This document shows, piece after piece, positions 2,239-64,000 of a DNA stretch of 64,000 bases (positions are counted from its first letter, which is position 1; every line of letters begins with the position of its first letter). The notes under the pieces are model-generated. The model was not told the origin of the DNA. It did not search any database and saw nothing but the letters and a program-made list of their open reading frames with translations. The position numbers and the translations under genes are program-made. Origin of the DNA: Clostridia bacterium (GTDB lineage: Bacteria > Bacillota > Clostridia > Oscillospirales > CAG-272); assembly GCA_017462795.1 (NCBI GenBank), contig JAFTQL010000041.1, positions 8,489 to 72,488 on the forward strand. The letters are read 5' to 3'.

Positions 2239-4019
2239 CAGATCAGATAATCCCGGTATTTTACGCTTGCGACGACAATTTTGTAAAGTACACCATCGTG
2301 TCCATGCATTCCATGATACAGAATGCGTCCAAGGAATACAAATATCACGTATATATATTGCACACGGGTATCTCCGAGGGCATGATGCAAAAGGTGTATG
2401 AGCTTGCCAACGATAATTTTGAGATATCCTTTGAGGACGTTACATCCTACCTTCGTTCCATTGCCGACAAGCTTCCCATAAGAGATTATTATTCAAAGAC
2501 TACCTATTACCGTCTGTTTATTGCCGAGATGTTTCCGGAGTACGATAAGGCTATATACATTGACAGCGATACGGTGGTGCAGGGAGACATGAGCGAGCTG
2601 TACAATACCGATATCAAGGACGCGTATCTTGGCGCGTGCCACGAGCAGGCAATGGTACAGGTGGACGAATACGGCACGTACGCGGAGAAGGTCGTCGGAA
2701 TCTCCAGATACAATTTCTTTAATGCGGGTATGCTGCTTATTAACTGTCATCAGTTCCGCATTCGCTTTATTCTTGATAAATTCATTCAGTATCTGCATAT
2801 CTATAATTTTGTGGTCACGCAGGATGAGGACTATCTCAATCTTATCTGTAAGGATCATGTTTATTGGTTGGATCAGCGCTGGAATACCGAGATATTCGGG
2901 GATATTCCTTATCCCATATCCGAGGCAAAGGTGCTTCACTATATTATGACAAGCAAGCCATGGCATTACGAGGATTGCAGACACGGAGATGTGTTCTGGA
3001 AGTATGCTGAGGAAACATCTGTTTATGATGAGATACTTGATGTGCTGAACGCCTATACCGACGAGGAGAGGGAGAGAGACCGCGTTTCCTGCGACAATCT
3101 TCTCGCGCTTGCCGTAAAGGAGACAAACAGAGAGGATAATTTCCTCAATCAGATGAATAAGGCGAAGAGATCCAAGGACAGAGTCGCTATACTGCAAAAG
3201 ATAGAGGAATACGAAAGAACGGGCAGATTTGACGAGGACGTGGAGGACGATCCCCCCGCCAGAGTGCTTATGCCCGAGGATATCGACTACCTCAAGAAGT
3301 CTGTTGCGGATAAGCTCAAGACCAGATTTGCCTTTATGATAGCCAGAAAGTTTGTTGATAATCTTATTGCCGAAAAAAAGCTTATCATAAAGGAGATAAA
3401 GGGAATAGAGAACTTCAGAAATCTCAACAGCGGAGCTATTATCACCTGCAATCACTTCAATGCCTTTGACAGCTTTGCCATACAGCTTGCCTATGAGGCG
3501 GCGGAGCAACCCGACAGAATATTTTACAGGGTCATAAGAGAGGGCAACTACACATCCTTCCCCGGCTTTTACGGATTTCTGATGAGACATTGCTACACTC
3601 TTCCTCTGTCATCTAACCTCAAGACGCTGAGCAAGTTTACCGAGGCGACGGGACAGCTGCTGAGAGAGGGCAATTTTGTGCTTGTGTATCCCGAGCAGAG
3701 CATGTGGTGGAATTACCGCAAGCCCAAGCCTCTGAAGACGGGAGCGTATATCTTTGCCGCCAAGAATAACGTGCCTGTTTTGCCGTGTTTTATTACCATG
3801 CAGGATTCGGATATTACAGGTGAGGACGGATTTGCGGTGCAGGAATACACCATACACATCGGCGAGCCTATCTATCCCCGCGAGGATCTGAAATACAGAC
3901 AGAATATAACCTACATGCTTGAGGAAAACGCCAGAGTGTGGAAGGAAATATACGAAAGCGAATATCATATTCCGTTGACGTATACCACGGTCACACCCGA
4001 TAACAATGAGGTTGTATAA
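2235..4019 (+). CDS. bifunctional GT8 glycosyltransferase / LPLAT-type acyltransferase fusion protein
   Basis: N-terminal half has IYIDSDTVV (DxD), NAGMLLIN and HYIMTSKPW. C-terminal half has CNHFNAFD (HX4D) and LVYPEQSMWW. ATGA overlap with the upstream gene. Confidence 0.8.
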   Translation: MTDQIIPVFYACDDNFVKYTIVSMHSMIQNASKEYKYHVYILHTGISEGMMQKVYELANDNFEISFEDVTSYLRSIADKLPIRDYYSKTTYYRLFIAEMFPEYDKAIYIDSDTVVQGDMSELYNTDIKDAYLGACHEQAMVQVDEYGTYAEKVVGISRYNFFNAGMLLINCHQFRIRFILDKFIQYLHIYNFVVTQDEDYLNLICKDHVYWLDQRWNTEIFGDIPYPISEAKVLHYIMTSKPWHYEDCRHGDVFWKYAEETSVYDEILDVLNAYTDEERERDRVSCDNLLALAVKETNREDNFLNQMNKAKRSKDRVAILQKIEEYERTGRFDEDVEDDPPARVLMPEDIDYLKKSVADKLKTRFAFMIARKFVDNLIAEKKLIIKEIKGIENFRNLNSGAIITCNHFNAFDSFAIQLAYEAAEQPDRIFYRVIREGNYTSFPGFYGFLMRHCYTLPLSSNLKTLSKFTEATGQLLREGNFVLVYPEQSMWWNYRKPKPLKTGAYIFAAKNNVPVLPCFITMQDSDITGEDGFAVQEYTIHIGEPIYPREDLKYRQNITYMLEENARVWKEIYESEYHIPLTYTTVTPDNNEVV

Positions 4020-4040
4020 GATATCTTAAAATCATATAAC

Positions 4041-4075
4041 GCAAAAGCACGAGAGTTATGCTCTCGTGCTTTTGC
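4041..4075. terminator. bidirectional terminator hairpin between convergent genes
   Basis: Perfect 15-bp stem gcaaaagcacgagag / ctctcgtgcttttgc with a 5-nt loop. Confidence 0.6.
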
Positions 4076-4155
4076 GTTGACCGTGTTAATTATTATTTTC
4101 TTCTTTTTGCAAGCCGCTATGGATATTGATACGGCAAACAAATATATAATATGTC

Positions 4156-4794
4156 TCAATTTAATAATATTTGCTTCAATTTTATTGCAACATCTTTTCC
4201 CAAATACTCAAACGCCTGTTTTGTGAGATGGCAATAATCGGAATAACATTCACTGCCAAATTCCCGTACTGTTGCATTCAAATCGCTTACAATAATGTTT
4301 TCATTTTTTGCAACATTAACAGCGATCTCATTGTATTTGTCGATCTCCGCATTATATCGTGGATTGACACCGACGACACCGTTTGGATTCATTGGCGTTG
4401 TAGTGGCAAAAACAATTTCCGCATTACAAAAATATTGTCTGAGCAGATAGATTATCATTTTTATATTTTTGGCGTATTCGTTCTCGCTCGTAAGAGCAAG
4501 CTCATATCCATTCCAGTGTGCCACATCCCAGTGTCCGCAATTGAACTGTACAATATCAACTCTGTCGGGACGGTCAAACGTATTCGCCCATGTTCTCATA
4601 GATGTTATTACGTTTTGAGTACTTTCACAATTACTCTTGGGATAAAATACCTCGGCAATGTCCGCAAGCTCCTCAGCTACTGTGGCACAGTATCCCTGTC
4701 GTATAGAATCACCTATCAAAAAAATATTTCTCTTGCTGTCACTACACCTGAATACTATCTTAGAATCACCGTTTTCTATCCATTTTGTTGCCAT
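4156..4794 (-). CDS. SGNH/GDSL-family hydrolase
   Basis: FLIGDSIRQGY (block I), CGHWD and DYCHLT (block V). Start set at the ATG at 4794, preceded by GGAGG, rather than the GTG at 4821. Confidence 0.75.
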   Translation of the reverse strand: MATKWIENGDSKIVFRCSDSKRNIFLIGDSIRQGYCATVAEELADIAEVFYPKSNCESTQNVITSMRTWANTFDRPDRVDIVQFNCGHWDVAHWNGYELALTSENEYAKNIKMIIYLLRQYFCNAEIVFATTTPMNPNGVVGVNPRYNAEIDKYNEIAVNVAKNENIIVSDLNATVREFGSECYSDYCHLTKQAFEYLGKDVAIKLKQILLN

Positions 4795-4856: not shown

Positions 4857-6473
4857 TTATACGGGTACCGAACCCATGTGTATTATATTAACGGTTGAGA
4901 ATAGCTGCGCTCTGTTTATGTTTGTGCTTTCTTGCTCTTTTCTGTACGGCAGCAGCTCCTCCTCAAGCTCCTCGATCCGGTCTATCCTTCCGTTTACATA
5001 GTCAAGTATTCTTCTTCGACAGGAATCGGTGCGACGGATAAGCGCGCCTATGCGGTGATCCTGAACGTCAAAGCCATGGGGCTTGTTGTCCGCAAACCAC
5101 TGCTTTTCAAAGGCTTTGCCATACACATCTATCAGCTTTGAAGCCTTTACATATTCATTTCTTGCAAGTCGTTCAAGCTCTGCCTTGTCCCCCGCCTCAT
5201 ACGCCTTACGGGTACGGAGTCCAAGCTCGTATTTGATGGCAAGCACATCACAAAGCTTTGCGGCGGTGTCGAATACATAGCCGTATTTACGGCTCTTTTT
5301 TGCTGTGGCGTGAAGCTCGGCGGAATAAGCTATATATTTTTGTCCCGCACCCTCTTTTACGGTGTAGTCAAGGAAATCGTTGAAGTAATCGGAGTAGAGC
5401 ATATACTTTGACGGGTTGCGCGGTCTGCCCTCATAGGGGACGACGTCGTTGGGACAGTCGATATTCATAAACTCATCAAAATCAATGCCAACAAGTCTCT
5501 TGAAGCCTGCTTTTATTTTCTCTGCGTCTGTCACACCCTTTGCGTACTGAGCAATATAGTAAAGCGACGGTAGCTGAGAGAAATGTGAGCATTCCGCGCC
5601 GTCGTCTCCCCACATGGTCATGAACACATTTCTGATACCGTGCTTCTTGCAGGCATCAAGCGCGGGAAGCATGGACTCAATTGTAAAGCGGTTGAACGGT
5701 ATCATGCCGTACCAGCTCCACGAGCCGCCCGCAAACCATGTTTTGTCGGACAATTGCTTGTGGTTTTCTATCATATCGCTGTATGCTTTCTCCGTCGTCT
5801 TATAATAATCCCAATAAACGGGGATGATGTCCTTGCGGAAGCTGTCGACCACCTCTTGTGGAATTTCGCGTTTGGGTATTGCATACTTGCCGTTGTTCCA
5901 TGGCCTGAAATACATATCCGACCACAGCATGACCTCATAGCCGTATTTTTTTGCTGTTTCGCATACGCGGTCAAGGTGCCGTCTCATTATATCATTCACC
6001 GTCTCGTAGCCGTGAATGTCAAGGTGCTTTCCGCGTCCGAGCATGTGCGCTTCATCCATACCGATGTGTATTTTACGGGAGACAAAGCACTCCGAAAGCG
6101 TTGCAAACATACGGTCTATAAGCTCGTAGGTACGCTCGTCATCGGTAAGCAGGATATCATCGCAGTCTCTGGGGAATTTGCCCCAACGGAATATAGCGTT
6201 AAGATGTGCCAACGTCTGTATACACGGAATGACCGTTAATCCGAGACTTGCCGCAAAGGCATCTATCTCCTTCATTTCAGCCTTGGAATAGCGACCTCTC
6301 ATATAGCCGAAATAGGGCTCTCCGTCAACCTCATAGGTGTCCTCTGTGTAAAGCATAACGCAGTTGTAGCCCATCTTTTTCAGAAGCGGTAAAAAGCGTT
6401 TAAGTCCGTCAAGGCTCATAACGGCGTTTCTCGACATATCTATCATTACACCGAAGGTGTCAAAATTTTTCAT
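4857..6473 (-). CDS. glycoside hydrolase family 20 (beta-N-acetylhexosaminidase-like), cytoplasmic
   Basis: IHIGMDEAH (HxGxDE catalytic motif) and a TIM-barrel N-terminal pattern GVMIDMSRN. No signal peptide. Confidence 0.8.
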   Translation of the reverse strand: MKNFDTFGVMIDMSRNAVMSLDGLKRFLPLLKKMGYNCVMLYTEDTYEVDGEPYFGYMRGRYSKAEMKEIDAFAASLGLTVIPCIQTLAHLNAIFRWGKFPRDCDDILLTDDERTYELIDRMFATLSECFVSRKIHIGMDEAHMLGRGKHLDIHGYETVNDIMRRHLDRVCETAKKYGYEVMLWSDMYFRPWNNGKYAIPKREIPQEVVDSFRKDIIPVYWDYYKTTEKAYSDMIENHKQLSDKTWFAGGSWSWYGMIPFNRFTIESMLPALDACKKHGIRNVFMTMWGDDGAECSHFSQLPSLYYIAQYAKGVTDAEKIKAGFKRLVGIDFDEFMNIDCPNDVVPYEGRPRNPSKYMLYSDYFNDFLDYTVKEGAGQKYIAYSAELHATAKKSRKYGYVFDTAAKLCDVLAIKYELGLRTRKAYEAGDKAELERLARNEYVKASKLIDVYGKAFEKQWFADNKPHGFDVQDHRIGALIRRTDSCRRRILDYVNGRIDRIEELEEELLPYRKEQESTNINRAQLFSTVNIIHMGSVPV

Positions 6474-6519
6474 TTGATTTTATTCCTTTCTGCCGTGCTG
6501 TATGGCACAATACGATTGT

Positions 6520-6548
6520 ATTATAACATAATTTCCGTTGTCTGTAAA
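6520..6548 (-). promoter_or_regulatory. sigma-A-like promoter for the GH20 gene
   Basis: On the minus strand: TTTACA, 17 nt, then TG-n-TATAAT. Confidence 0.45.
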
Positions 6549-6591
6549 TATTTTGAAAACAAATTTTGAAACGCAATGTCTTGCTTTTCTC

Positions 6592-8370
6592 TCAAGTGCT
6601 TTGCTTTTCAGACAGCCAATCCTGTAAGGAATCACATCCGCTTGTTCCGACGGTGTACGGCACTACCAAGCGGACGACCCGACCGCCTGCTCCCGCAATG
6701 AACACTTCTTTTGCAAGATTAACCACACATTTATTGTAGGGGGCATCTTTAATGACCTCATAAGCGGTAGTTGCGCATGGCCACAGCACCACATCCGCCG
6801 ACGCATATTCATATACCCTAATAACATTAACATTGGTATCTCTTCCGACAGAGAACCCGTGATGCGCGACCTGTACTATGTCGCTCTTGAGATAGTCACC
6901 GTAAGTATTTGCGAGGACCTCGCACACATAATCGGTGGCATCAGCAAGCATCAAAAACTTTTGACCTCCCAATTCTATATTGAGACACGTAGATGTGGTA
7001 TTTCCTATTGTTAATATCTGCGGCGCGTAGTTTTCGGTGGTAAAAAGCACCTCAAACATCAGGTCGCCGAAGAAATATTTTTGACCCGCGTGAGCCTTTA
7101 TTATGCGTACTCCGTCAAATTTTTTAGCTTGGGCAAGAAGCACATTGCCCGAATCGACATCGCCGGCTTGCAAATTTCCGTCATATCGCGCGGTATCGCT
7201 GGGGAAATTGGCAATAAAGTGCTTCAGCGTCACCTTGTCGGCATATGTGTCCGCAAACACATAGAATGAACCCCAATGGTCAGAATGAGCGTGTGTGATC
7301 ACCCATGCGTCAATAACTATATTGTCAGGATCGGGAGCATATTTTTTCATATAATCATAAATGGCTTTCGCTGTATTCGCGTTCTTATAGCCGCCATCAA
7401 TTATTGTGAATCCCCCTTCAGACGACTGAATTACAAGAGACAGACCTCCTGAATCTCTGGTTTCCTTTGGAGGGTAGGCGAGTCCAAGTATTGAAATGCT
7501 TGGCTCGACAAGCTTCTGACATTCCTCGGTAGGCTCAAGCGTAGGAAGTGTGGAGAGCGGCTCTATGTTTACTTTCACGGTGTTTTCGTATGCGGTATAT
7601 GACGCGTTTACGATGTATTTATCGTTTATATATGTCGCAAATTTGTTTTCCTTTATCTGATTGTCGGTGTAAAACTCAAAGCCCGAGCTTTCAAGCTTGG
7701 AAAGGTAGGAGGTATATGACTCCGCGGTAGTGTCTGATACCACCAGCATATAGTTGTCGTTACCGTTATCATATACACAGTCTTTTTTTCCACCGTCATA
7801 CGTGGGAAGCGCGTTTACAGATTGGACTCCCGTTCCCGTGAGATTTATATCCGCGGAAACGGCAAAGCTTCCTTCTGTTCCGTTTGAAAGCAGCTCCATT
7901 CCAAATGCGGTTATAGCATCGGCAAGCGCGTCAGAGCTGAGCGCGTTTATTACCAGCTTATTATTTACAAATTTTACGATATAATCTCCGTATCCGATCC
8001 CCTCAAGAGCCGTTGCGGATTCTTCGCGTGAGGTAACTCCCACAAGTATCTCTACGGTATCGCCGTTGTTGTTTGCGGACTGCTTATCGGTAGAGATCTT
8101 AGGGGTAGCTCCTGTTGCCGAAGCGAAAAGGTTGGACAGATTGTTTACAAGATCCTTAACTGTTGCCGTTGCTGTTGAGCTTCTGACTATCTTACACTTA
8201 GCAACACCGTCGCTTACAAGCGATATGCTGCCTGAGGTAACGGGTATCTCATCTGTTGTGATCTGATTGGTTTCATTATCACCTGTATCATTGACGCACG
8301 ATGCGAGAGAAGAAATGAGTATAAGAAGCACCAGCGTAAATGCTATGGCTTTATTTAATAAATGTTTCAT
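6592..8370 (-). CDS. lipoprotein with C-terminal metallo-beta-lactamase-fold domain (locus A copy)
   Basis: Lipobox LASC after a hydrophobic N-terminus. VITHAHSDHWG (HxHxDH). AAGGTGG RBS. Paralogous to 23789-25849. Confidence 0.75.
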   Translation of the reverse strand: MKHLLNKAIAFTLVLLILISSLASCVNDTGDNETNQITTDEIPVTSGSISLVSDGVAKCKIVRSSTATATVKDLVNNLSNLFASATGATPKISTDKQSANNNGDTVEILVGVTSREESATALEGIGYGDYIVKFVNNKLVINALSSDALADAITAFGMELLSNGTEGSFAVSADINLTGTGVQSVNALPTYDGGKKDCVYDNGNDNYMLVVSDTTAESYTSYLSKLESSGFEFYTDNQIKENKFATYINDKYIVNASYTAYENTVKVNIEPLSTLPTLEPTEECQKLVEPSISILGLAYPPKETRDSGGLSLVIQSSEGGFTIIDGGYKNANTAKAIYDYMKKYAPDPDNIVIDAWVITHAHSDHWGSFYVFADTYADKVTLKHFIANFPSDTARYDGNLQAGDVDSGNVLLAQAKKFDGVRIIKAHAGQKYFFGDLMFEVLFTTENYAPQILTIGNTTSTCLNIELGGQKFLMLADATDYVCEVLANTYGDYLKSDIVQVAHHGFSVGRDTNVNVIRVYEYASADVVLWPCATTAYEVIKDAPYNKCVVNLAKEVFIAGAGGRVVRLVVPYTVGTSGCDSLQDWLSEKQST

Positions 8371-9346: not shown

Positions 9347-10597
9347 TTAATGAATTTGCGCTCCGCCCGCTACAAGTTTTTTTTGAACTGCGGATACATC
9401 CAAGGTGTGAGCAGTCTTGCCGCTATGTATAGCCTCAGCCGCCGCAACTCCCGCGGCTTCTCCGAGACAGGTGCAGATAGGCATTATGCGTACCGCGGAA
9501 TGCGCCTCGTGGGTAGCCGACAAGCATCTTCCCGCGACAAGCATGTTGTCAAGCTCCTTTGGCAGCAAGCTGCGGTAGGGTACTCTGTAATATTCACCGG
9601 GTTTGAAGCGATAAATATACGTTCCCGTACCCTCGGGGTTGTGTATATCAATGTCGTATTTGCCAAGAGCAACCGAATCCTCAAAATCTACACAGTTTAT
9701 AAGCTCGTCTGCCGTCAGCGTGTGAACTCCCCTGAGCTTGCGGCTCTCTCTGACACCTATCTCCGATGCTATGGATATAATGGTGCTGTTTTCAAACGCC
9801 TCGGAATTTGTACGCAGGAAATTATACATTTCAATAACCTGACTGCGCGCCTCCAGCTCCGCTTTGGAAAGCGCCGCGGAATCCGTCGGATCCATTTTTA
9901 TTACGCGAGTGGTATTAAAATGAAGTATACCTTCTCCGAGATTTCCGAATATAAGTATATTCTCTCTGGGATTTTTTATTTTACCCTCTGCCTGATACTG
10001 TTTATATAGCTCCTGGAGTCGCGGCTTATCCGCTTTATATTTTTTCAGATCTACATTTGATAATTTAAAGCAGGTGGTCATAGGCTGACAGAGGTTGTCG
10101 CTCTCGCGCCCAAGCTGAAAGTCACAGCCCGCGAATACCATGAGATCTCCGTCACCGCTCGCGTCTATGAAAAAGTCGGCGCTTATCTCAACAGTGCCAG
10201 ATTTCTGAGCCAGGCGGACTGCCTTTATTCTTCGTCCCTCGGTAACAGCTCCTATGAGCTGTGTGTGAAACAGGATCTCAACGCCTGCCTCTAAAAGCAT
10301 TTGATCTAACATTATTTTAAATATCTCAGGCTGCCAGCCGCGCTCGGATACACCGCCAAGCTCCTCGTGCCTTCTGCACATTTCGGCAAATATTCCGGCA
10401 CTCAATACTCTCTTTGAGCCGTCGGTGTCGGTAAGCGTGTAGCTCATAAAGGGATAAACAGAGCAATTGGACATAGCTCCGCCAAGACAGCCCGCGCGTT
10501 CAACGAGAAGCACACGCAAGCCCTCTCTTGCCGCTGCAACGGCCGCTGCAACGCCCGACAAGCCTCCGCCGACAACCAAAAGATCATAATTCTGCAT
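9347..10597 (-). CDS. FAD-dependent oxidoreductase (locus A copy)
   Basis: N-terminal DLLVVGGGLSGVAAAVAAAREG Rossmann fingerprint. No signal peptide. Paralogous to 20644-21924. Confidence 0.8.
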   Translation of the reverse strand: MQNYDLLVVGGGLSGVAAAVAAAREGLRVLLVERAGCLGGAMSNCSVYPFMSYTLTDTDGSKRVLSAGIFAEMCRRHEELGGVSERGWQPEIFKIMLDQMLLEAGVEILFHTQLIGAVTEGRRIKAVRLAQKSGTVEISADFFIDASGDGDLMVFAGCDFQLGRESDNLCQPMTTCFKLSNVDLKKYKADKPRLQELYKQYQAEGKIKNPRENILIFGNLGEGILHFNTTRVIKMDPTDSAALSKAELEARSQVIEMYNFLRTNSEAFENSTIISIASEIGVRESRKLRGVHTLTADELINCVDFEDSVALGKYDIDIHNPEGTGTYIYRFKPGEYYRVPYRSLLPKELDNMLVAGRCLSATHEAHSAVRIMPICTCLGEAAGVAAAEAIHSGKTAHTLDVSAVQKKLVAGGAQIH

Positions 10598-10623
10598 ATT
10601 TGTATTACCTCACAATTTCTTTT

Positions 10624-10676
10624 AAAAAAAGGCAACGCAGCATTTTACGGAACACTCCCGAATATACCGCATTGCC
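10624..10676 (-). terminator. intrinsic terminator/attenuator downstream of the micro-ORF
   Basis: On the minus strand: GGCAATGCGG ... CTGCGTTGCC (10 bp including 2 G-U pairs) followed by TTTTTTT. Confidence 0.5.
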
Positions 10677-10701
10677 CTATTTTAATTATAAATATCTGTT
10701 A

Positions 10702-10839
10702 TCAGAGCGACAAGGGATCAAGCCTTATTATTCCGTCGGGAAGCTCTTCTCCCTCATAAGCGCCTGCCACTGACATCGTGATAACATCAAGTGCTTCAAG
10801 CACCAATACATTTGCGGTTGCTTTTTCATATTTTTTCAT
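10702..10839 (-). CDS. 45-aa acidic micro-protein (unannotated, locus A copy)
   Basis: ATG at 10839, TGA at 10702-10704, AAGAGG 7 nt upstream. Translation: MKKYEKATANVLVLEALDVITMSVAGAYEGEELPDGIIRLDPLSL. Resembles the 23643-23771 product. Confidence 0.5.
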   Translation of the reverse strand: MKKYEKATANVLVLEALDVITMSVAGAYEGEELPDGIIRLDPLSL

Positions 10840-10850
10840 ATTTATACCTC

Positions 10851-11201
10851 TTATTTCGGTTCTACGAGAGGACCATAGCCAAGGGTTGCATTTGCCGCCT
10901 CTTTTTTCAAATCTCCTGTTTTGGAGTCATCGGGTTGAACAGGGGCGGGATCAGTGTCACTGTCTGAAGGCTCGTCCGTTTCGTTGCTTGTTTCCGTGTT
11001 GGATTCTTCGTTATCATCGGTAGTTGTTATTGTGCTATCACCATCGGAGGTCGTTATTGTGTTATCACCATCGGAGGTCGTTATTACGCTGTCGCTGTCG
11101 GTCTCACTGTCGGAGGGAGCGTTTTTATTACATGCCGCTATTGCCAGCGCAAAACACAAAACGATGGAAACGATTATAAATAGCTTAAATGATCTTTTCA
11201 T
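10851..11201 (-). CDS. small Asp/Thr/Ser-rich lipoprotein with 9-aa tandem repeats
   Basis: Lipobox IAAC. Repeats ITTSDGDNT / ITTSDGDST / ITTTDDNEE. ATGA overlap with the upstream GLUG gene. Confidence 0.65.
   Translation of the reverse strand: MKRSFKLFIIVSIVLCFALAIAACNKNAPSDSETDSDSVITTSDGDNTITTSDGDSTITTTDDNEESNTETSNETDEPSDSDTDPAPVQPDDSKTGDLKKEAANATLGYGPLVEPK
11015..11095. repeat. 27-nt tandem repeat, three copies, in frame within the lipoprotein gene
   Basis: atcggtagttgttattgtgctatcacc / atcggaggtcgttattgtgttatcacc / atcggaggtcgttattacgctgtcgct. Confidence 0.8.
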
Positions 11202-13033
11202 GCGGCATCACCGTTATAGTCAAAGGTAAATCTGGAAATTTTATCATACGCTACCGCATTGTCTTTCACCAGATAGGGAATTACGTCTATGGTAATATCC
11301 GTAGCCGCCTCTGTTTTGGTAGCGCTCTTGTAGCCCTGGATCTCAGCGACGTAAAGATATTTTCCTCCAAGGGTCTCGGCGCTCACATCAAGTCCGTCAG
11401 CCTTAACGGATGTGTAGACAGTATCGGTCTCTCCCGAAACGCTCTTTACCACGGTATTTCCTTCTGCATCCTTATAGGTGAGGAATACAACAAATCCGAG
11501 CTTGTCACCGCTTTGTACCGTTGCTTCGTCAACCGCGGAAACAAGTCTTATGTCCATGCCGTCAGCTTCGCTGTACTTGGTCTGCGCGCGGTTTGCGGCT
11601 ACATTATATATATCCTCTGTCATAGCATTGCCACTCATATCGTAGTAACCTTCGCCGGACATGCAAAGACGTGCTTCTCTTCGTGCATCATAGGAAAACA
11701 GAGGCTGACCCTTGCTGTCGTTTACCGAAGCCTTGTTAATAACAATATTCAGTGATGTTCCATAAAGAGAAAGACTTGTTTTTGCGTTTTTAGTGGGTGC
11801 CAAATATCCTATCAAGGCATCTGCGGTATCGTTAGTAGCGCCTGAATCAACCGAAGTCAGTTCAGCGTTTATCTCACAGTTAACAACAGCAACTGTGTAT
11901 GAAAAATAGTAAAACTGACCGATAATTCCTCCGATTATACGCCCGGAGGATATTGCTCCTGTATAATCACAGTTGTTTAAGGTTTGTACCTTCGCAGTGT
12001 TGTTGGTCTCATTTACGAATCCCATAAAGCCACCGGCAACTGCATTTGTTACGCTTAAATTCAATGTTGCACTACAATCCTCAAAAGTATAATCACTATC
12101 CATGGCTCCGACAAAACCGCCGGAAAATATAGCCTTTACAGCCGATTTATCACTGTTGCCGCTTATTGCACCGGATATCTCACAGCCTTTTGCGTTTATT
12201 GCGGCGGTGGAATATCCGACCAATCCGGCAGTGTAAGAATTCTTTGCGGGGTTACCGTCATAGGCTACAGTGGCTTCAAAATTTGTAAGCTTGAAGTTTT
12301 CAATATTAAGAGTACCTACCGTTGTGCCCTTTACGTTCTGGAATACAGCGCCTGCAACTCCGTTAAGAGCTGTTACTTTCGTACCAGCTTTATTTATGGT
12401 TGCCTTAAAGCCGTTTACGGTAATGTTCTTTACCGTTGCTACTGTTTCAGAAATGTTATATCCGATAACGCCGCCAATCATACTTGCATCCGTAGAGGTA
12501 GTGGTAGCGGTAAGTGTATTTACAGTAATATCCTGAACAGTTGTATCCGTAGCGTATGCGGAAACTGCACCCATATAAATTGCCGCCGACTGCTCCTGAG
12601 CAGTGCTGAGCGTTACCTTATCCAAGGTGAGATTTTTAACTGTCGCGCCGTTACACTTAGCAAACAGACCCATGTAGGTTGCCTCGGTGGATACGGTAAG
12701 ATTGGAAACAGTTTTTCCGTTTCCGTCAAATGTTCCGTCAAAGGAATATTCGCCGTTAAGGCCGCCAACGGGTGTCCAAGTTACGCCTGCCATATCAACA
12801 GACGCGCCGAGTGTTACGGTTTTGCCGTCAAAGCTGTCCTGTGCAATGTCAGTTGCCGTTCCGCTGACAATCGCCGAAAAGCCAAGCAGATCGCCTGCGT
12901 CATTGAGTGTGAAGCTCTGTGAGGTCGTGTCATACCAGGAATAATCAGCCGCAGTTTCCGCAGCGTATATTGTGGGGACAAGCACGAAAATCATTGCAAA
13001 CGCGATCAGTGCCGAAAATAATCTTTTTTTCAT
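11198..13033 (-). CDS. secreted GLUG-motif beta-helix repeat protein (locus A copy)
   Basis: Signal peptide ending IYA-AE. FDGTFDGNGKTVSNL entry motif. Repeated GG(V/F/I)(I/V/M)G segments. C-terminal domain shared with the 21983-23626 product. Confidence 0.7.
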   Translation of the reverse strand: MKKRLFSALIAFAMIFVLVPTIYAAETAADYSWYDTTSQSFTLNDAGDLLGFSAIVSGTATDIAQDSFDGKTVTLGASVDMAGVTWTPVGGLNGEYSFDGTFDGNGKTVSNLTVSTEATYMGLFAKCNGATVKNLTLDKVTLSTAQEQSAAIYMGAVSAYATDTTVQDITVNTLTATTTSTDASMIGGVIGYNISETVATVKNITVNGFKATINKAGTKVTALNGVAGAVFQNVKGTTVGTLNIENFKLTNFEATVAYDGNPAKNSYTAGLVGYSTAAINAKGCEISGAISGNSDKSAVKAIFSGGFVGAMDSDYTFEDCSATLNLSVTNAVAGGFMGFVNETNNTAKVQTLNNCDYTGAISSGRIIGGIIGQFYYFSYTVAVVNCEINAELTSVDSGATNDTADALIGYLAPTKNAKTSLSLYGTSLNIVINKASVNDSKGQPLFSYDARREARLCMSGEGYYDMSGNAMTEDIYNVAANRAQTKYSEADGMDIRLVSAVDEATVQSGDKLGFVVFLTYKDAEGNTVVKSVSGETDTVYTSVKADGLDVSAETLGGKYLYVAEIQGYKSATKTEAATDITIDVIPYLVKDNAVAYDKISRFTFDYNGDAA

Positions 13034-13054: not shown

Positions 13055-14515
13055 TTAGTCTAATGCTGCGTATTGTGAATAGATTCCGTCAAGTATGCCG
13101 TTCATCGACGGAGCAAACTTTGCGAAATGGGATGCCGCGTCAGTGCCGCCATATGTATGCATGCAGAACATCTCCGTCTGATACTTATTTACAGTATAGT
13201 TGTGAGCGTATGTAACGTCCAGCATTATGCTCCTGTTAATAAGGTCGATGATCTCCATGTTTTCGGGAACCTGAACGTATTTTGTTTTCAAGGTATCCTC
13301 ATAGTACTCGGGTACAACATTGAGATAGCTCAGACAACCGTGCGCGTTGATTATATCAACGACCATATCGGCGTCGGAGGTGATCGGAATTACAAACATA
13401 CCTGCCGATGTTCCCATCTGAACGTAGTAATCGGTCTGTTCCTCATTATATTTGGGTTGAGGAAGTATAACGTAATCATCGCACAGGGTAGCAAGAGTTT
13501 CCGCGGTCTCAATTGTTTCATTAAGTATGATCGCGCGGTCAGCGGCAAAGATAGACGTTAAAGGAGAGATGTCGTTTGCCTTAAGGATATATGTGTCCTT
13601 GGGGTTGGTAACCAGTGTCTTGAATTTATCGACCGCGTCATAGTAACGCTGAGTCGCACCTTTATACACAAGCTTTCCTTCGCTTGATCTGTCTATCAGA
13701 TTAAGATCGAACGCGGTCTGGAATCCTCTCATGGTAACGTCCGATGATATAAAGCCATAGAAATCGACTTCAGTCATCTGTTCATCGCTGTTTATGTCCT
13801 CACCCTGTTCTCTTGTCAGCTTAAGGAAGTTTTCGAGTGTCCATTTGCCGCTGAGAACAAGCTCGACTGGATCGGTAAGCTTTCGCTGCTCAATAAGCGC
13901 CGTATTTGCGTACATAACGTATGTTCCCTTGTATACGGATAACATTGATGAACCGGTAACAGCATATAGCCTATCCGCTATCTGAAGGTTATTGTAAATA
14001 TCCGCCGACCACCAGGGGTTGCTGAAATCCATGCCCTCAAGAGAACCGTAATTGTAGAACTGACCTTCAATGGTCAGAGGCATTATAATTGATGTCATTC
14101 CGTTTACGAGCTGATATGCATCATCTTCTGCCATTATACTGTCACGAACAAGCGAAATAAACGTAGACTTGTTGGTCCAGTTGCCGGGTTCAGCCATATA
14201 GACAAGGTCAACGCCATAGGTGCTCTCAATTTGTATGTCGCGCTTATAGACCGCATCGTTGATCTTATCTCCGGTCAAGCCCTCCGCAAATTCATACGAT
14301 TGTTCCTTGGGCTGTAGAATAGTGAATGTGGCTCCGCCGTAGTTGTTTTTTGGAAGCTCTGCCCACCAATCGGTTCCATCAGCATCCGTGGAGACTGTAT
14401 TATTGTTGGAAGTATCCACGGGTGGAGTGTCGTCATTTGAACAAGCTACCAGTGTTCCCAGCAGAGTTAAGCAAGCAAGTCCTCCGCATAGGAATCTTGT
14501 GATTTTTTTGCGCAT
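13055..14515 (-). CDS. extracellular solute-binding-protein-like lipoprotein (orphan, locus A copy)
   Basis: Start set at the ATG at 14515, with GGAGG 8 nt upstream. Lipobox LVAC. About 490 aa, SBP family-1-like. Paralogous to 28388-29857. Confidence 0.75.
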   Translation of the reverse strand: MRKKITRFLCGGLACLTLLGTLVACSNDDTPPVDTSNNNTVSTDADGTDWWAELPKNNYGGATFTILQPKEQSYEFAEGLTGDKINDAVYKRDIQIESTYGVDLVYMAEPGNWTNKSTFISLVRDSIMAEDDAYQLVNGMTSIIMPLTIEGQFYNYGSLEGMDFSNPWWSADIYNNLQIADRLYAVTGSSMLSVYKGTYVMYANTALIEQRKLTDPVELVLSGKWTLENFLKLTREQGEDINSDEQMTEVDFYGFISSDVTMRGFQTAFDLNLIDRSSEGKLVYKGATQRYYDAVDKFKTLVTNPKDTYILKANDISPLTSIFAADRAIILNETIETAETLATLCDDYVILPQPKYNEEQTDYYVQMGTSAGMFVIPITSDADMVVDIINAHGCLSYLNVVPEYYEDTLKTKYVQVPENMEIIDLINRSIMLDVTYAHNYTVNKYQTEMFCMHTYGGTDAASHFAKFAPSMNGILDGIYSQYAALD

Positions 14516-14737
14516 AATTTTTTCCTCCATTAATAAATTTATTGCGGCAATTTGTGAAGATTGATGAATAAATCGCTTTTCTTCACACAAATATTATCGC
14601 ACATATTCCAAGCGATTTATATATAAAAAATTAGCATATTTTTGTAAAAATCGAGCATAATTGATATGGTGTTATTGATTTATCATCTGCTATGTGTTAT
14701 AATTACAGCACAAATTCGAGTGAAGGGGGATAAATAA

Positions 14738-15604
14738 TTGAAGTTTAACCAGATATGCCCAAAGGTGTTGTCAATTATGCAATTTAACAAAAAATTTAAC
14801 ACAAAGTCTATTGTGCATCATAAAATCTCCTATAGCTACAGGATAATTGTTCCTCAAAGGGGAACTCTCACATTTCACGCAGACGGACAGCGCTATTTGT
14901 GCGAGCCCGGAAATATTATTTATATTCCCGCGAAGAAAGAATATTGCACGGAATTTACAACTCCGCATTTCACATCACTGAATATTGACTTTGATATGCT
15001 CAATGACCGAGATCCCACAACAACTAATTTAAAAAGATATTTTGTTTTGATAAATAAGGAGAAAAAGGACGAATATTTGTCAACAATAGTGGACTTTGAG
15101 GATTTTCCCATATTCAATGAATGTATTGTGGTAAGCAATTTTCCAAATGCTATCGAACGCGCGCAAAAGATTTATGACATTCAAAAGAAATCCACCGCCT
15201 TCACACCTATTGAGCTTAATCTCCACATCACTGAATTGTTAATAGATATAGCCAAGTATCTGACCAGCGAAAAGAAAACATCACACGCGATCATTGCGGA
15301 ACGAGTGCTTGAGTATATTAAGGCGCACACCACCGAAAAGCTTACGGCGCAAATGATAAGCAGTGCCTTTTCATATCATCCTACATCTCTTAATCGCATC
15401 GTGCGTGAATTTTACGGTTATTCATTACACCAACTCATAATCAGAGAAAAAATAAATGTTGCCATACAGCTTCTGTCCGAAAACGACATGAGCGTTACCG
15501 ATATTGCGTACCATCTATCCTTTTATGACAGCGCCCATTTTTCCAAAACCTTCTATGAAATTGCAGGCTGTCTCCCTTCGGATATCCGTAAAAACCATAA
15601 ATAA
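14738..15604 (+). CDS. AraC-family transcriptional regulator (locus A)
   Basis: C-terminal double HTH with the ...SVTDIAYHLSFYDSAHFSKTF... signature. Divergent from the SBP gene. TTG start with AAGGGGGA upstream (alternative ATG at 14777). Confidence 0.85.
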   Translation: MKFNQICPKVLSIMQFNKKFNTKSIVHHKISYSYRIIVPQRGTLTFHADGQRYLCEPGNIIYIPAKKEYCTEFTTPHFTSLNIDFDMLNDRDPTTTNLKRYFVLINKEKKDEYLSTIVDFEDFPIFNECIVVSNFPNAIERAQKIYDIQKKSTAFTPIELNLHITELLIDIAKYLTSEKKTSHAIIAERVLEYIKAHTTEKLTAQMISSAFSYHPTSLNRIVREFYGYSLHQLIIREKINVAIQLLSENDMSVTDIAYHLSFYDSAHFSKTFYEIAGCLPSDIRKNHK

Positions 15605-21982: not shown

Positions 21983-23626
21983 ATGAAAAAAGCACTATCT
22001 TATCTTTTGGCGACTATCATGATCATCTCGGCCTTCGCAGTCATGCCTGCCACTGCGGCGGGTACAGCTCCCACAGCACCTGATAAAGAGGTGGTTGTCG
22101 GATATGACACGGGCAAGGTCCTTGAAGTAAGCGGACTTAAAGAGAAGGTGACCGCAACCACCCCCGGTACAACACCCATTCCTACTGTAATGGACTATTC
22201 CTTTACTTGCACGGAAGGCGGGAAATATACTATCAGCTCTCCCGAACAGCTTGGTATGTTCAGCAGAATGAGCAGAGTAACATCGAGTGATGGCAAGCAG
22301 AAGTGGACTTTTGAGGGCTGTACAGTTTATATCACTTGTGATATAGATATGTCCAAGCTTGAGGATAAAGGCGACGGAACATATTCTTATAACTTTTCGG
22401 GAATAGGAGAAGGCAACGGCTCGTCAGCAAAGCAGCTGTTCTTTGCGGGAACATTTGACGGTCAGGGCTATGTCATTGATAACTGGGAGATAGCCAACAG
22501 TTATCAGGGCTGCGGTTTCTTTAACTGTGTTGTGGATGCTACAATTAAGAATGTAGTTCTCGGCTCGGGTAATAAGGTTACCGCAAGCAATAATCAGATC
22601 GGTGGTCTTGTTGGATATGCACGTAAATCGAATACGGCATATGGTGTATCTATTGAGAATTGTCTTGTAATGTCAACTGTCGTAACAAACGGTAACAAAA
22701 ACCAGATGGGCGGTATCATAGGCGCTATGGCAGGGCCTGTAGATATCACCAACGTAACATTCGGCGGAAGCATAACGGGTGATAACCGTGTCGGCGGTAT
22801 AGTCGGAGCGGCAGGTCAGGTCACTACACTTACAAATTGCCTGATGAGCGGTACTGTTGTGGCAAATAATGCTTCTTCCACGTCATCGGATAAATTAACC
22901 ATAGGCGCGGGCGCTATTATAGGCTATCTGAATAATTCGGCGACCGTAAATAACTGTGTAAATGCGGGTACTGTAACATCCGCTAACGTGTCGGGTGTTA
23001 TTGCGGGAAGCATAAATGAATCGTCTGCCGCCAAGCTCACGGTAAACAGCGCCGTAAACTACAGCACATCGGTGACAGCCGCTTACGGTAAGCTCGGCGC
23101 AAACGCAACAGCCAATATAAGCGGATATACCGATCTTTCCACGGCTGACATCGGAAACGCCATCCGTGTAAATCCCGATCTTCCCATGGGACTTCGTTAT
23201 ACATCTGTTATTACCAAGGCGCAGATAGATGCGGCTAAGGCGCTTTCCAAGGACGGCACTGTCTCCTTCGGTACTATCATAGCTCCCAAGGATTACTTTG
23301 GCACAAACGAGGCATATACCGCCACAAACGCGGGTACATATCTGGATATTCCGGCGACCTCTATAGGCATGACCGAGAACGCTGACGGCAGTGTTACGCT
23401 CAAGGCGGCAATAACCGAGATCAAGGACGGCAATCTCAAGAGAGACTTCGTATTTGTTCCTTATATCTCTTATGAGGATGCCGACGGCAATACGGTATAC
23501 AGCTACGTATACACAACGGGCATCAAGAGCGCGAGAGCCGTTGCGGATCTGGCGCTTGCCGATACATCCGCAAGCTATTCCGACACCACGATCGCCCTTA
23601 TCAAGGAAAGATACGTTAAAGACTGA
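21983..23626 (+). CDS. secreted GLUG-motif beta-helix repeat protein (locus B copy 1)
   Basis: Signal peptide (..ATA-AG). FAGTFDGQGYVIDNW. IGGLVGY, MGGIIGA and VGGIVGA repeats. AGGAGG RBS. Confidence 0.7.
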   Translation: MKKALSYLLATIMIISAFAVMPATAAGTAPTAPDKEVVVGYDTGKVLEVSGLKEKVTATTPGTTPIPTVMDYSFTCTEGGKYTISSPEQLGMFSRMSRVTSSDGKQKWTFEGCTVYITCDIDMSKLEDKGDGTYSYNFSGIGEGNGSSAKQLFFAGTFDGQGYVIDNWEIANSYQGCGFFNCVVDATIKNVVLGSGNKVTASNNQIGGLVGYARKSNTAYGVSIENCLVMSTVVTNGNKNQMGGIIGAMAGPVDITNVTFGGSITGDNRVGGIVGAAGQVTTLTNCLMSGTVVANNASSTSSDKLTIGAGAIIGYLNNSATVNNCVNAGTVTSANVSGVIAGSINESSAAKLTVNSAVNYSTSVTAAYGKLGANATANISGYTDLSTADIGNAIRVNPDLPMGLRYTSVITKAQIDAAKALSKDGTVSFGTIIAPKDYFGTNEAYTATNAGTYLDIPATSIGMTENADGSVTLKAAITEIKDGNLKRDFVFVPYISYEDADGNTVYSYVYTTGIKSARAVADLALADTSASYSDTTIALIKERYVKD

Positions 23627-23642: not shown

Positions 23643-23771
23643 ATGAAGAAATTATATTCAACACCCGAATTTAAGGTTATATGTCTCAACACCGAGGACA
23701 TCATGTCGGCAAGCAGTACGCTTGAAGAGGATGATATCGGAGCGGATATCTTTGACGCTCTTTCTATCTGA
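23643..23771 (+). CDS. 42-aa acidic micro-protein (unannotated as such, locus B copy)
   Basis: AAGGAGG 8 nt upstream of the ATG at 23643. Translation: MKKLYSTPEFKVICLNTEDIMSASSTLEEDDIGADIFDALSI. It is the 3' part of track ORF 23454-23771, which otherwise overlaps the GLUG gene. Confidence 0.55.
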   Translation: MKKLYSTPEFKVICLNTEDIMSASSTLEEDDIGADIFDALSI

Positions 23772-62473: not shown

Positions 62474-63514
62474 TCAGAATATAAAGCCGCACAGTATGAA
62501 GGCAAGGAATGCTCCGAGTACGACAAGATCAGGTATCTTCAGCTTGAAGGAGCGTCTGTAAATGATATATCCGATAGCCATGGCGATGAGATACATAATG
62601 TTCATTATGTCCGCCGTGCCTATTGAAATATAGATGCACAGACCGCAAAGGGGTATCAGCACCTTGTAGCCAAAGGGAGAGTCGGATATACCGCCTGCCT
62701 TTTCCGCTTTTTGTCTTGAAAAGGTGAAAAGATATCCCAATACGGAGGCGATGCCCGCGATCCCCCAGAAAACAAAGCTGACCGCCTCATAGTCATTGAA
62801 TCCGAGAGACTGAGGAGAGACTATTGCAATGTTTTGTACGTCGGGATCATAATAAAAATACTTTATGGTCGGAGTAATATAGCCGTTGTATTCGGAGGTG
62901 AAGACGGAAATCGGTGAATAAACAAAGTAGTTTTCGGCACTTCCCTCAATAAATGTTATGGAGGTTATCTCACCGATAGCCGTTACAATACAGAAGCCTG
63001 CTATTGCGTATATCGCCATGAATACCGCGCCGTCGGCAACCGTGTTTGCCTGAGTGAAAACAAACATAAATACAGAATACATGACAATGCATGCGAATAT
63101 CGTATAGCCGAAGAAGGGAAACATGGCAAGGAGATTAAGGTGCTCCGCGTATCCGATAAGCCTCAGTGCTGCCGTGACAAAGCAGATAGCGCTGATGACC
63201 GTTATATGGATAAGTCCGTTGATATAATGAGCCACAGCCATCTTTTGTCTGGTCACGGGAAGGAAGAACAGTGTGTCAAGATTTCTGCGGTTTTTAAAGC
63301 CGGAAAGCTCCAATATGGGAATGACTGTACACAGTATTGCCGCCAGAATGCCGAGAAAGGATATATCCGATCGGATATAAACCTCGGTGTCGCTGCGGAC
63401 GGTGTCCGGATATACAGATGTGACGGTAAGCGCAAGGGCAAGCACCGCCATGACCGCTCCGCGCAGCAGAGTGCTTTTGAAGTGATAGGTAAAATATTTC
63501 TTGAAGCTTGTCAT
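62474..63514 (-). CDS. polytopic membrane protein, probable ABC-2-type permease partner
   Basis: Multiple hydrophobic helices. 4-nt overlap with the upstream ABC ATPase gene. Confidence 0.5.
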   Translation of the reverse strand: MTSFKKYFTYHFKSTLLRGAVMAVLALALTVTSVYPDTVRSDTEVYIRSDISFLGILAAILCTVIPILELSGFKNRRNLDTLFFLPVTRQKMAVAHYINGLIHITVISAICFVTAALRLIGYAEHLNLLAMFPFFGYTIFACIVMYSVFMFVFTQANTVADGAVFMAIYAIAGFCIVTAIGEITSITFIEGSAENYFVYSPISVFTSEYNGYITPTIKYFYYDPDVQNIAIVSPQSLGFNDYEAVSFVFWGIAGIASVLGYLFTFSRQKAEKAGGISDSPFGYKVLIPLCGLCIYISIGTADIMNIMYLIAMAIGYIIYRRSFKLKIPDLVVLGAFLAFILCGFIF

Positions 63515-64000
63515 TTTTCCTTCCTCCTTGTCACCTCGTTGATAAACGCTTCCTCAAAGTCAACAGGCATCTGCTCCATAACGGTGGGGGCCAGCGCCCT
63601 GAGCCTTTCTTCAATATCATGGCCGTCGCCCTCAAATACGCCTTTGATAAACTTTCCGCTTCTTGTCATGGAGATCACAGGCAGACCGTCAAGGATATTT
63701 TCGGGTATATCATCGGCAAAGGCGAGCATGAACTTGCAGTATCGCTCCACCTTTTCGGAGATATCGCCCGAGCTGCTTACCGTCATTCTGTCAATGACTG
63801 CATACCTGTCGCAAAAGTCCTCAAGCTCCCGCAGGGAATGGCTGGATATGATCACGGTCGCACCGTCATCCTCCACCATGCGAATCAGCTCCTCCTTGAC
63901 CTTCTGCCGTGCCAGCGGGTCGAGACCGTCAAATGCCTCGTCAAGCAGAAGGTATTTCGGCCGTATGGCAATGGCAATGGCAATGTAAGCCTGACGGCGC
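63511..64000 (-). CDS. ABC transporter ATP-binding protein (5' end outside window)
   Basis: The frame is open to the window edge. Upstream of the track start it reads ...RPKYLLLDEAFDGLD (Walker B), then SSHSLRELE (H-loop). Confidence 0.8.
   Translation of the reverse strand, partial: RRQAYIAIAIAIRPKYLLLDEAFDGLDPLARQKVKEELIRMVEDDGATVIISSHSLRELEDFCDRYAVIDRMTVSSSGDISEKVERYCKFMLAFADDIPENILDGLPVISMTRSGKFIKGVFEGDGHDIEERLRALAPTVMEQMPVDFEEAFINEVTRRKEK

Follow-up and report, generated by a model that had tools for sequence, protein, structure and literature searches.

A small open reading frame of a Clostridia bacterium belongs to a previously uncurated clostridial peptide family encoded next to large secreted proteins

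Introduction

Large surface proteins are very numerous in gut and rumen Clostridia but poorly understood, and a peptide gene placed systematically after such proteins would offer a handle on their deployment or regulation. The locus described here raises this subject on a small scale. In a 64-kb stretch of DNA from a Clostridia bacterium (hereafter the window, meaning the whole stretch analysed), a 45-codon frame, micro-ORF A, lies between a lipoprotein gene and a gene for an FAD-dependent oxidoreductase. Is it a gene and, if so, what kind of peptide does it encode and with which partners? The original prediction considered it an unannotated frame with its own terminator, related to a second micro-ORF of the window (micro-ORF B), and proposed a peptide precursor or a small regulator. 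The question has a practical side, as the genes of the family to which both frames were assigned lie at or below common ORF-size cut-offs.

Results

Micro-ORF A is a conserved coding gene

The features of locus A are the following:
10702..10839, minus strand: micro-ORF A, 45 aa, with ATG at 10839-10837 and TGA at 10704-10702, by direct reading of the sequence
10847..10852, minus strand: Shine-Dalgarno sequence AAGAGG, 7 nt before the ATG of micro-ORF A
10851..11201, minus strand: acidic repeat-containing lipoprotein, 116 aa, directly upstream of micro-ORF A, lipobox LAIAAC
11198..13033, minus strand: secreted Glug-like protein, 611 aa, homologous to a Glug-annotated 539-aa protein of the orthologous locus L100 (33% identical)
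13055..14530, minus strand: lipoprotein of about 491 aa matching no Pfam family, with which the unit begins, homologous to a 485-aa protein of L100 (57% identical)
14738..15604, plus strand: divergent AraC-family regulator, with a counterpart in the same position in L100 (47% identical)
10622..10685, minus strand: long hairpin plus U7 (intrinsic terminator or attenuator), located between micro-ORF A and the FAD-oxidoreductase gene
10685..10713, minus strand: candidate sigma-70-like promoter, TTGTCG-17-TATAAT, 10/12 matches, a consensus match only
9347..10597, minus strand: FAD-dependent oxidoreductase (PF12831), downstream of the hairpin, with an orthologue in the same position in L100 (73% identical)

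The frame on the minus strand begins and ends where it had been placed, and the AAGAGG in front of it indeed sits at the end of the lipoprotein gene, overlapping its TAA stop. This lipoprotein, which carries repeats of the type D-x-x-ITTSDGD and ends in GYGPLVEPK, follows the 611-aa Glug-like protein and is separated from micro-ORF A by 11 nt; the order of a lipoprotein and then the peptide was also found in two other loci (L027 and L042). The product of micro-ORF A, MKKYEKATANVLVLEALDVITMSVAGAYEGEELPDGIIRLDPLSL, contains 8 acidic and 4 basic residues but lacks Cys, as first described, and comprises a leader-like block at residues 1-23 (MKKYEKATANVLVLEALDVITMS) followed by a tail at residues 24-45 (VAGAYEGEELPDGIIRLDPLSL). 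It has no signal peptide, and no exporter gene was found nearby. The description of the frame as unannotated did not hold, since GenBank contains it as hypothetical protein MBQ9112795.1 (IJY08_04365, from the MAG Clostridia bacterium); micro-ORF B, by contrast, is absent from NCBI. Scans against Pfam and NCBIfam at E <= 10 gave zero matches for A, B and ten family members.

Orthologues of the peptide were recovered as P0012 (53% identical) and the P0004/P0095 group (42-44%), and all three retain the start, the stop and the frame, with one in-frame 9-nt indel. Nonsynonymous divergence was lower than synonymous divergence (pN < pS) in all orthologue pairs, although near-saturation of the synonymous sites makes dN/dS no more than indicative, and the six natural variants in the P0004 group were limited to single conservative substitutions. 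In two other species, frame, hairpin and gene order are all retained at the orthologous loci. In L100-L103 this order is the AraC gene, then the unit of lipoprotein, Glug protein, GDPD, 327-aa lipoprotein and micro-ORF, and finally the hairpin and the FAD oxidoreductase, and the 44% identity of the micro-ORF falls within the range of its neighbours (33% for the Glug protein, 47% for AraC, 57% for the first lipoprotein and 73% for the FAD oxidoreductase). An MBL protein, 47% identical, lies on the other side of AraC in the orthologous locus. The 327-aa lipoprotein ends in GYGELVSPKH, so that, judged from its sequence, the 116-aa lipoprotein of the window looks like a shortened counterpart. Since the orthologues keep frame, hairpin and neighbours, the checks of frame conservation and of neighbourhood that had been suggested gave a positive outcome for the A subfamily, and micro-ORF A is confirmed as a real, conserved, small coding gene and not a chance ORF. 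A scan of JGI metagenomes with the A-subfamily alignment returned 532 pattern matches, of which 0 were confirmed.

These data also bear on the idea that micro-ORF A is a decaying relic of a precursor gene that was once linked to a cassette of maturation-type genes (described below), translated by coupling and without a current function. A leader that has diverged from the family consensus and the absence of maturation genes within 64 kb would fit such decay. However, the frame, start, stop, Shine-Dalgarno sequence and tail motif have been kept in three species over a distance at which the neighbouring proteins are 33-73% identical, population variants show conservative changes only and pN stays below pS, and we therefore regard a relic as less likely, indeed improbable.

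Within the A subfamily the tail is conserved and not hypervariable. Its motif, (D/E)LP(D/E)G..I.(L/I)(D/N)P(L/W), resembles ..ENELPGIDPF, the commonest tail among cassette-linked members, and a pattern defined post hoc for this tail matched 10/143 distinct tails but had no match in the shuffled sets. From an alignment of 71 sequences, AlphaFold2 modelled peptide A with a mean pLDDT of 73, predicting coil for the N-terminal block and a beta-hairpin in the tail (28-32 and 38-42) around an LPDG turn. A tail conserved in this way would suit a core peptide and a folded or binding peptide equally well.

A conserved hairpin separates micro-ORF A from the FAD-oxidoreductase gene

The RNA following micro-ORF A folds into a single dominant hairpin, with a long stem at about 10678-10629 (10685-10622 including an A/U extension). 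Its minimum free energy is -34.2 kcal/mol (z = -4.4), and 0/200 shuffles folded equally well. The hairpin of the orthologue L096 folds at -26.3 (z -5.2), and the structure is conserved, with 23 shared pairs, 2 compensatory and 7 one-sided changes and 0 broken pairs. A simple terminator scan missed the structure because its apical part exceeds the length rule of the scan, and Rfam gave nothing significant at the hairpin (best match sau-5971, 20.8 bits against a cut-off of 90) and no family above its gathering score across the window. The predicted hairpin plus U-run is thus borne out at locus A by folding and shuffling. It is specific to the A-type locus; micro-ORF B has no terminator, as the next gene begins 17 nt later. 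This conserved RNA hairpin divides locus A into two expression units. It is plausible, as originally suggested, that the peptide is produced in larger amounts than the products of the downstream genes.

Such an arrangement could mean that micro-ORF A is a cis-acting leader ORF, the translation of which would control read-through of the hairpin and expression of the FAD-oxidoreductase operon, with a peptide that has no function of its own. The stop codon of micro-ORF A and of its orthologues precedes the stem of the conserved hairpin and U-run by 17-25 nt in three species, the FAD gene has no room for a promoter of its own past the hairpin because only about 25-30 nt separate the U-run from its start, and the candidate sigma-70-like promoter lies at the 3' end of micro-ORF A, just before the hairpin. 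Attenuation is nonetheless less likely, and we rate it as very improbable, considering that the amino-acid sequence is conserved across the family in many unrelated contexts, that no hairpin accompanies micro-ORF B or most of the family members, that the stop lies before the stem and not inside it, that no alternative antiterminator pairing was seen in the fold and that the frame has no regulatory codon runs.

Loci A and B are paralogous

The second micro-ORF and the gene before it are the following:
21983..23626, plus strand: secreted Glug-like protein, 547 aa, ending 16 nt before micro-ORF B
23643..23771, plus strand: micro-ORF B, a paralogous family member, 42 aa, MKKLYSTPEFKVICLNTEDIMSASSTLEEDDIGADIFDALSI, without a terminator

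The sequence AAAGGAGG sits 8 nt upstream of micro-ORF B, the product of which has no Cys in its tail and one Cys in its leader block. Similarity between the two peptides is weak yet above chance (global score 38 against -3.6 +/- 8.3 for shuffled sequences; local p ~0.003), and the shuffled-alignment test and the family profiles agree that the two micro-ORFs are related, as had been proposed. The loci themselves are paralogous AraC-flanked kits, each comprising an AraC regulator, a lipoprotein that belongs to no Pfam family (about 500 aa), secreted Glug-like protein(s) (one of 611 aa in locus A, two of 547 and 478 aa in locus B), a PF12831 FAD oxidoreductase (43% identical between the loci) and an MBL-domain lipoprotein. 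The C-terminal half of the 547-aa protein is 33% identical to the protein that precedes the family member P0005 in L006, and the 611-aa protein corresponds to the large secreted proteins found ahead of family members in other loci. Sequence searches of the PDB with the 611-aa and 547-aa proteins gave no matches, and a single-sequence AlphaFold model of the latter was unusable (pLDDT 39).

The remainder of the 64-kb window consists of housekeeping genes. Gene content and HMMs for ScmC, PqqD, S26 peptidase, NTP_transf_5 and radical SAM (rSAM) genes agree with the earlier statement that the window holds no maturase, the sole exception among the cassette-type matches being an ABC ATPase fragment at 63511-63999. 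Since the window is without cassette genes, it gives no direct sign of maturation for A and B.

Micro-ORFs A and B are divergent members of a clostridial peptide family

Word-indexed homologue searches with A or B alone retrieved only the queries themselves, and an exhaustive profile search was needed. The profile search with both peptides, which had been suggested at the outset, retrieved a family of small clostridial peptides: among 1.84 billion representative proteins the A+B profile yielded another 25 proteins at E <= 1e-3, with family members at E 1e-3 to 7e-6. In length, 22/25 were 34-77 aa, nearly all aligned from residue 1, and the other three were longer (101, 568 and 2165 aa), the 568-aa and 2165-aa proteins being treated as spurious repeat matches. 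A profile built from 21 sequences gave 78 matches of 32-81 aa. In addition, a pattern-plus-tblastn scan of one genome per species located 80 loci in Lachnospiraceae, Oscillospiraceae, Ruminococcus and related MAGs, with 2-3 loci in several genomes; this set is biased towards the FETEDVITT leader because consensus-type members were used for the scan. An independent HMM, built only from peptides of the genome loci and leaving out A, B and their close relatives, placed A at the top of the window's 659 small ORFs (15.2 bits, E 4e-4) and B next (13.0 bits), the third reaching 2.5 bits. A and B are therefore divergent members of a previously uncurated clostridial peptide family. No description of this family was found in the literature; coverage was incomplete, and the novelty of the family is provisional.

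Family products are 32-50 aa long and occur in gut and rumen Clostridia. They begin with a nearly invariant block of about 23 residues, MK(K/E)xYEx(P/A)E(M/V/I)E(I/V)(I/V)xFETEDVITTS (in short form MKKxYExPEhEhhxFETEDVITTS), in which the D and S of the block are invariant in 71 sequences. Peptide A follows the general pattern M-K-K-x-Y-x-x-(P/A)-x-h-x-h-h-x-h-x-x-x-D-(V/I)-h-x-x-S from residue 1 and keeps Y4, A7, D18, V19, I20, T21 and S23 of the family block; it deviates from the leader consensus by P7->A, E17->L and T22->M, and Ala at position 7 is common in the ENELPGIDPF subgroup. The tails comprise 7-32 residues (median 15), are 50% Gly, Asp, Glu and Pro and are poor in Lys, Arg and His. 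Their first residue is Gly in 45% of cases (Val in peptide A, after ..TMS), a (L/I/M/T)-P motif was present in 67/146 tails, and an aromatic residue fell within the last four positions in 64/146. Several loci carry 2-3 tandem copies with differing tails. An SD-like motif precedes 88/90 family ORFs, and both A and B have their own Shine-Dalgarno sequence and lie shortly after the gene of a large signal-peptide protein on the same strand.

Large secreted proteins are the constant neighbours of the family

Recurrence next to Glug, MBL or FAD-oxidoreductase genes had been proposed as a check, and it was observed in the direct orthologues of locus A. Across about 90 other family loci FAD and MBL genes were found in 0, and the FAD oxidoreductase, MBL, xylose-isomerase-like and GH20 proteins were accordingly discarded as general partners. 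The constant partner of the family is the large secreted protein encoded immediately upstream, not the FAD or MBL genes. Among copies with at least 1.5 kb of upstream sequence, 42/84 directly follow a large signal-peptide protein of one neighbour cluster (cluster 0) and 54/84 follow some protein of at least 400 aa, with a median intergenic gap of 23.5 nt. The upstream proteins are heterogeneous and multi-domain (Flg_new in 11, Flg_new_2 in 10, Glug in 8 and BspA-type LRR (LRR_5) in 4 of the 41 scanned) and share two recurrent C-terminal modules without a Pfam description; the 611-aa protein of locus A and the 547-aa and 478-aa proteins of locus B match this set weakly.

In addition, at least one of three neighbour clusters holding cassette genes lies within 8 kb of 56/109 copies. 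The typical order is a LytTR regulator, the large surface protein, the peptide and a small lipoprotein or LRR protein, and then the cassette, which Pfam and NCBIfam identified as a ScmC/HPr-kinase-like protein (~245 aa), a PqqD protein (~86 aa), a SipW-like S26 peptidase (~143 aa), an ABC exporter and a PF14907 nucleotidyltransferase (NTP_transf_5); in L024 the peptidase and the nucleotidyltransferase are naturally fused. Some loci add a radical SAM/SPASM enzyme with best matches to RiPP maturase models (TIGR04463, CefB, PapB), and the tails beside such genes contain Cys in 8/9 cases against 11/97 elsewhere (Fisher p = 2e-6). No other observation speaks as clearly for the tail being the target, in the manner of a core peptide. 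Cassette-linked and orphan copies occur in the same genome in JAFXSC, CAMHMN and JAZAUD.

The same neighbourhoods allow the peptide to be seen as an unmodified small partner of the upstream large secreted protein, perhaps as its co-translated chaperone, its inhibitor, its cap or a ligand that tethers it; the cassette found elsewhere would then be accessory. This explanation, which we hold to be a serious but clearly less probable contender, stays alive because adjacency to the large protein is the most constant feature of the family and because a few loci share end motifs. Moreover, 29 copies have a big protein but no cassette, as in the window, cassette-less pairs occur in L006, L010, L012, L014, L097 and L099, and the A-subfamily tail is conserved with a predicted beta-hairpin. 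The shared motif is a tail motif that recurs at the terminus of a neighbouring small secreted protein in L007, L027, L036 and L064, the lipoprotein of L007 ending in ..ENELPGVDPFA and the neighbour in L027 in ..AIELPFVPAK. Overall the effect is weak, with scores of at least 30 in 8/102 comparisons against 7/306 controls. Besides, the putative partner is secreted but the peptide itself carries no signal peptide, the set of upstream proteins is heterogeneous, and a simple partnership would leave unexplained both the co-occurrence of PqqD, peptidase, ABC and radical SAM genes and the link between Cys and radical SAM.

Discussion

We lean somewhat towards the interpretation that the family consists of precursor-type peptides built as leader and core, and that A and B are cassette-less orphans, A being the last cistron of an AraC-flanked unit. 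Precursor function is the part of the original prediction that the wider family backs best, through its build of block and tail, its PqqD, peptidase, ABC and radical SAM neighbours and the association of Cys with radical SAM. As a whole, that prediction was right about the coding gene and points to the favoured reading; FAD and MBL genes turned out not to be general partners, and the terminator layout is not shared by locus B. At family level a conserved leader is joined to a variable core and core residues co-vary with the maturase, as in RiPP-type systems; a PqqD/RRE protein together with a modifying enzyme was found near the peptide in other family loci and not in the window. Against the precursor reading stand the lack of cassette genes in the window, leaders of A and B that diverge at several consensus positions, a tail that is conserved in the A subfamily, and a peptide with neither a signal peptide nor an exporter nearby; across the family, moreover, a large secreted protein is adjacent (54/84) no less often than the cassette (56/109).

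As we picture it, the unit of locus A would comprise the lipoprotein, the secreted Glug-like protein, the acidic lipoprotein and the peptide, and would end at the conserved terminator-like hairpin. The N-terminal block of about 23 residues would be the recognition or leader part and the variable, acidic, Gly/Pro-rich tail the released part. In cassette-linked loci PqqD may bind the leader, the tail, or else the invariant TTS, may become modified, and the S26-type peptidase would cleave after ..ITTS, with small residues at -1 and -3, before the ABC transporter exports the product. In view of the gene linkage, the exported product would have an extracellular role alongside the surface protein encoded with it. 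Peptides A and B may be handled by machinery encoded elsewhere in the genome or may act unmodified with the neighbouring Glug-like protein.

A bolder proposal, which we consider unlikely, is that the family forms a new class of exported modified peptides, made by a gene set (HprK-like protein, PF14907 nucleotidyltransferase, PqqD, stand-alone S26 peptidase and ABC exporter) taken over from lasso-type clusters without the cyclase, and that the products work with the giant surface proteins. If this were true, the peptides could be, for example, ligands tethering, releasing or switching anchor-less adhesin-like proteins, and orphan copies such as A and B would add further ligands, each specific to its locus and served in trans. 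The end motif ELPx(I/V)(D)P(F/W) of the tails recurs in lipoproteins encoded nearby.

The present analysis turns two unexplained micro-ORFs of the window into conserved members of two paralogous AraC-flanked loci. If the precursor reading is right, it would also define a family of peptide natural products missed by current Pfam and NCBIfam models.

Comparison with known peptide systems

The closest gene content is that of Firmicutes lasso clusters of the paeninodin/pseudomycoidin type, which comprise the precursor A, a PqqD-like B1, a transglutaminase-like B2, an Asn-synthetase-like cyclase C, an ABC exporter D, an HPr-kinase-like kinase and a PF14907 nucleotidyltransferase. Accessory genes of this kind occur in rumen and Firmicutes lasso clusters (PMC7533575). 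The PqqD-type protein, the HPr-kinase-like protein, the PF14907 nucleotidyltransferase and the ABC exporter are common to these clusters and to canonical family loci, and the leaders follow comparable patterns, MKxWxxPxhEELxIxETAx|G in lasso precursors and MKKxYExPEhEhhxFETEDVITTS|G in the family, with Thr at -2 in the latter and Gly as the commonest next residue (45%). In contrast to lasso clusters, the canonical family loci inspected have a SipW-like S26 peptidase instead of the cyclase and the B2 protease, the giant upstream surface protein is a feature of the family and not of lasso clusters, and the PqqD of the cassette scores below the cut-offs of lasso PqqD models. An acidic residue occupies core position 7-9 in 104/146 family tails, a count expected from composition because the tails are 24% Asp+Glu overall. 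Since neither the window nor any of the canonical family loci inspected contains the lasso cyclase or the B2 cysteine protease, and the family HMM scored published Firmicutes lasso precursors no better than shuffles (6.3 bits for the best precursor, 11 bits for the best shuffled control), assignment to the lasso family was rejected.

The cassettes described by Haft (SynChlorMet ScmC-ScmF; HPr-rel-A; NCBIfam/TIGRFAMs) likewise combine an HprK-like P-loop protein with a small PqqD and sometimes a radical SAM/SPASM enzyme, and we know of no established product of cassettes of this type. The best matches of the family cassette were TIGR04249 ScmC (E 3e-7) and TIGR04353 PqqD_rel_X (E 3e-4), together with Pfam ScmC in precomputed annotation; it is not a member of these equivalogs because its scores fall far short of the cut-offs (for ScmC, 30 bits where 125 are required), and it differs from them in taxa, peptide family, S26 peptidase and surface-protein linkage. 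Sactipeptide and ranthipeptide systems resemble the subset of family loci with a radical SAM/SPASM enzyme and Cys-containing tails. Unlike these systems, A and B have tails without Cys and no radical SAM gene in the window, most family tails also being without Cys, and as a maturase the radical SAM enzyme of family loci scores well below every curated cut-off. Provisionally, the family is best placed among leader-core peptide systems, as a new and so far uncurated variant that stands out by being systematically coupled to genes of large surface proteins.

Leader conservation and variation of the putative biosynthetic loci

Cys-containing tails behind the usual leader were found in 8 of 9 family peptides encoded next to radical SAM/SPASM enzymes (loci L022, L031, L033, and L059) vs. 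11 of 97 encoded elsewhere (p = 2e-6), and since the leader is the same in both settings, one leader type seems to serve different maturation enzymes.

The operon of the ENELPGIDPFA-type peptides (L007-L009) is probably carried on a mobile element, since it is surrounded by integrase, relaxase, ParA, and SSB genes. Besides, an AbiEi/AbiEii toxin-antitoxin pair interrupts the cassette between ScmC and PqqD in L032 (11935-13424), and genes of the same size (197 and 300 aa) occupy the matching position in L017 (11701-13193), where they are assumed by analogy to be the same pair. In L024 (10461-12089), a natural fusion protein of 542 aa, adjoining a family peptide, joins an S24/S26-like peptidase domain to a PF14907 nucleotidyltransferase domain.

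Micro-ORF B (window 23643-23771, plus strand) was called in the ENA and Logan assemblies and is missing from the NCBI annotation, in which micro-ORF A is present; a 98% identical variant (D35E) is known. In addition, P0007 (77 aa) is a single ORF with two tandem peptide units, MRKKYIGATANVMPMQAEDIICTS... and ...RKTYSEASAEVVLSDIEDILCVS..., the first of which is similar to peptide A (YxxATANV).

Hairpin downstream of micro-ORF A

The hairpin after micro-ORF A, which in the window has a promoter-like match directly upstream of its stem, was located as follows in the window and in two orthologous A-type loci:

10622-10713, minus strand, window
7668-7750, L100
455-550, L096

The structure was kept across species, with two compensatory changes, seven one-sided changes, and no broken pairs. 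The FAD-oxidoreductase gene has no space for a promoter after the hairpin, because its start codon lies only ~25-30 nt beyond the hairpin end. The hairpin may be an intra-operon attenuator, not a plain terminator.

Secreted and surface proteins adjoining the peptide genes

Small lipoproteins or secreted proteins adjoin the peptide genes at several loci:

10851-11201, minus strand, window: 116-aa lipoprotein gene
10206-10718, L007: small secreted protein/lipoprotein with a peptide-tail motif
3946-4731, L027: the same
6425-7147, L036: the same
10077-10787, L064: the same

The 116-aa lipoprotein ends in GYGPLVEPK; the orthologous lipoprotein of L100 is 327 aa long and has GYGELVSPKH at its C-terminus, so that the window protein looks like a shortened version. 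Its repeats (DSVITTSDGD, NTITTSDGD, and STITTTDD) resemble the family motif EDVITTSG. At some loci, a short motif of the peptide tail is repeated in the adjoining small protein, at its own C-terminus or directly after the signal peptide (e.g., ..ENELPGVDPFA and ..AIELPFVPAK), and across all loci together this recurrence was only weakly above controls.

The large proteins preceding the peptides (loci L006-L094) have in common two recurrent C-terminal modules, '..SY..L.....L.N..KALY.Y..AA.AY' and 'WYxRAYLVYTDxxGxxHTVYG', neither of which is covered by Pfam. Variants of the second form the ends of the secreted Glug-like proteins B547 (window 21983-23626) and A611 (11198-13033).

AraC-flanked loci

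The features considered were:

14738-15604, window: AraC gene of locus A
5236-6063, L001: its counterpart
884-1015 and 10486-10590, L099: micro-ORFs of two surface-protein/micro-ORF pairs

In the window, a single ORF of 288 aa encodes the locus A AraC regulator. L001 belongs to a different assembly of this organism, and there the gene was called as two ORFs of 171 and 96 aa; the split call could reflect a frameshift/stop variant or a gene-calling artefact. In L099, a divergent AraC gene is flanked by the two surface-protein/micro-ORF pairs, one micro-ORF being preceded by a 2713-aa Big_5 protein, an arrangement reminiscent of loci A and B in the window, which are likewise flanked by AraC genes.
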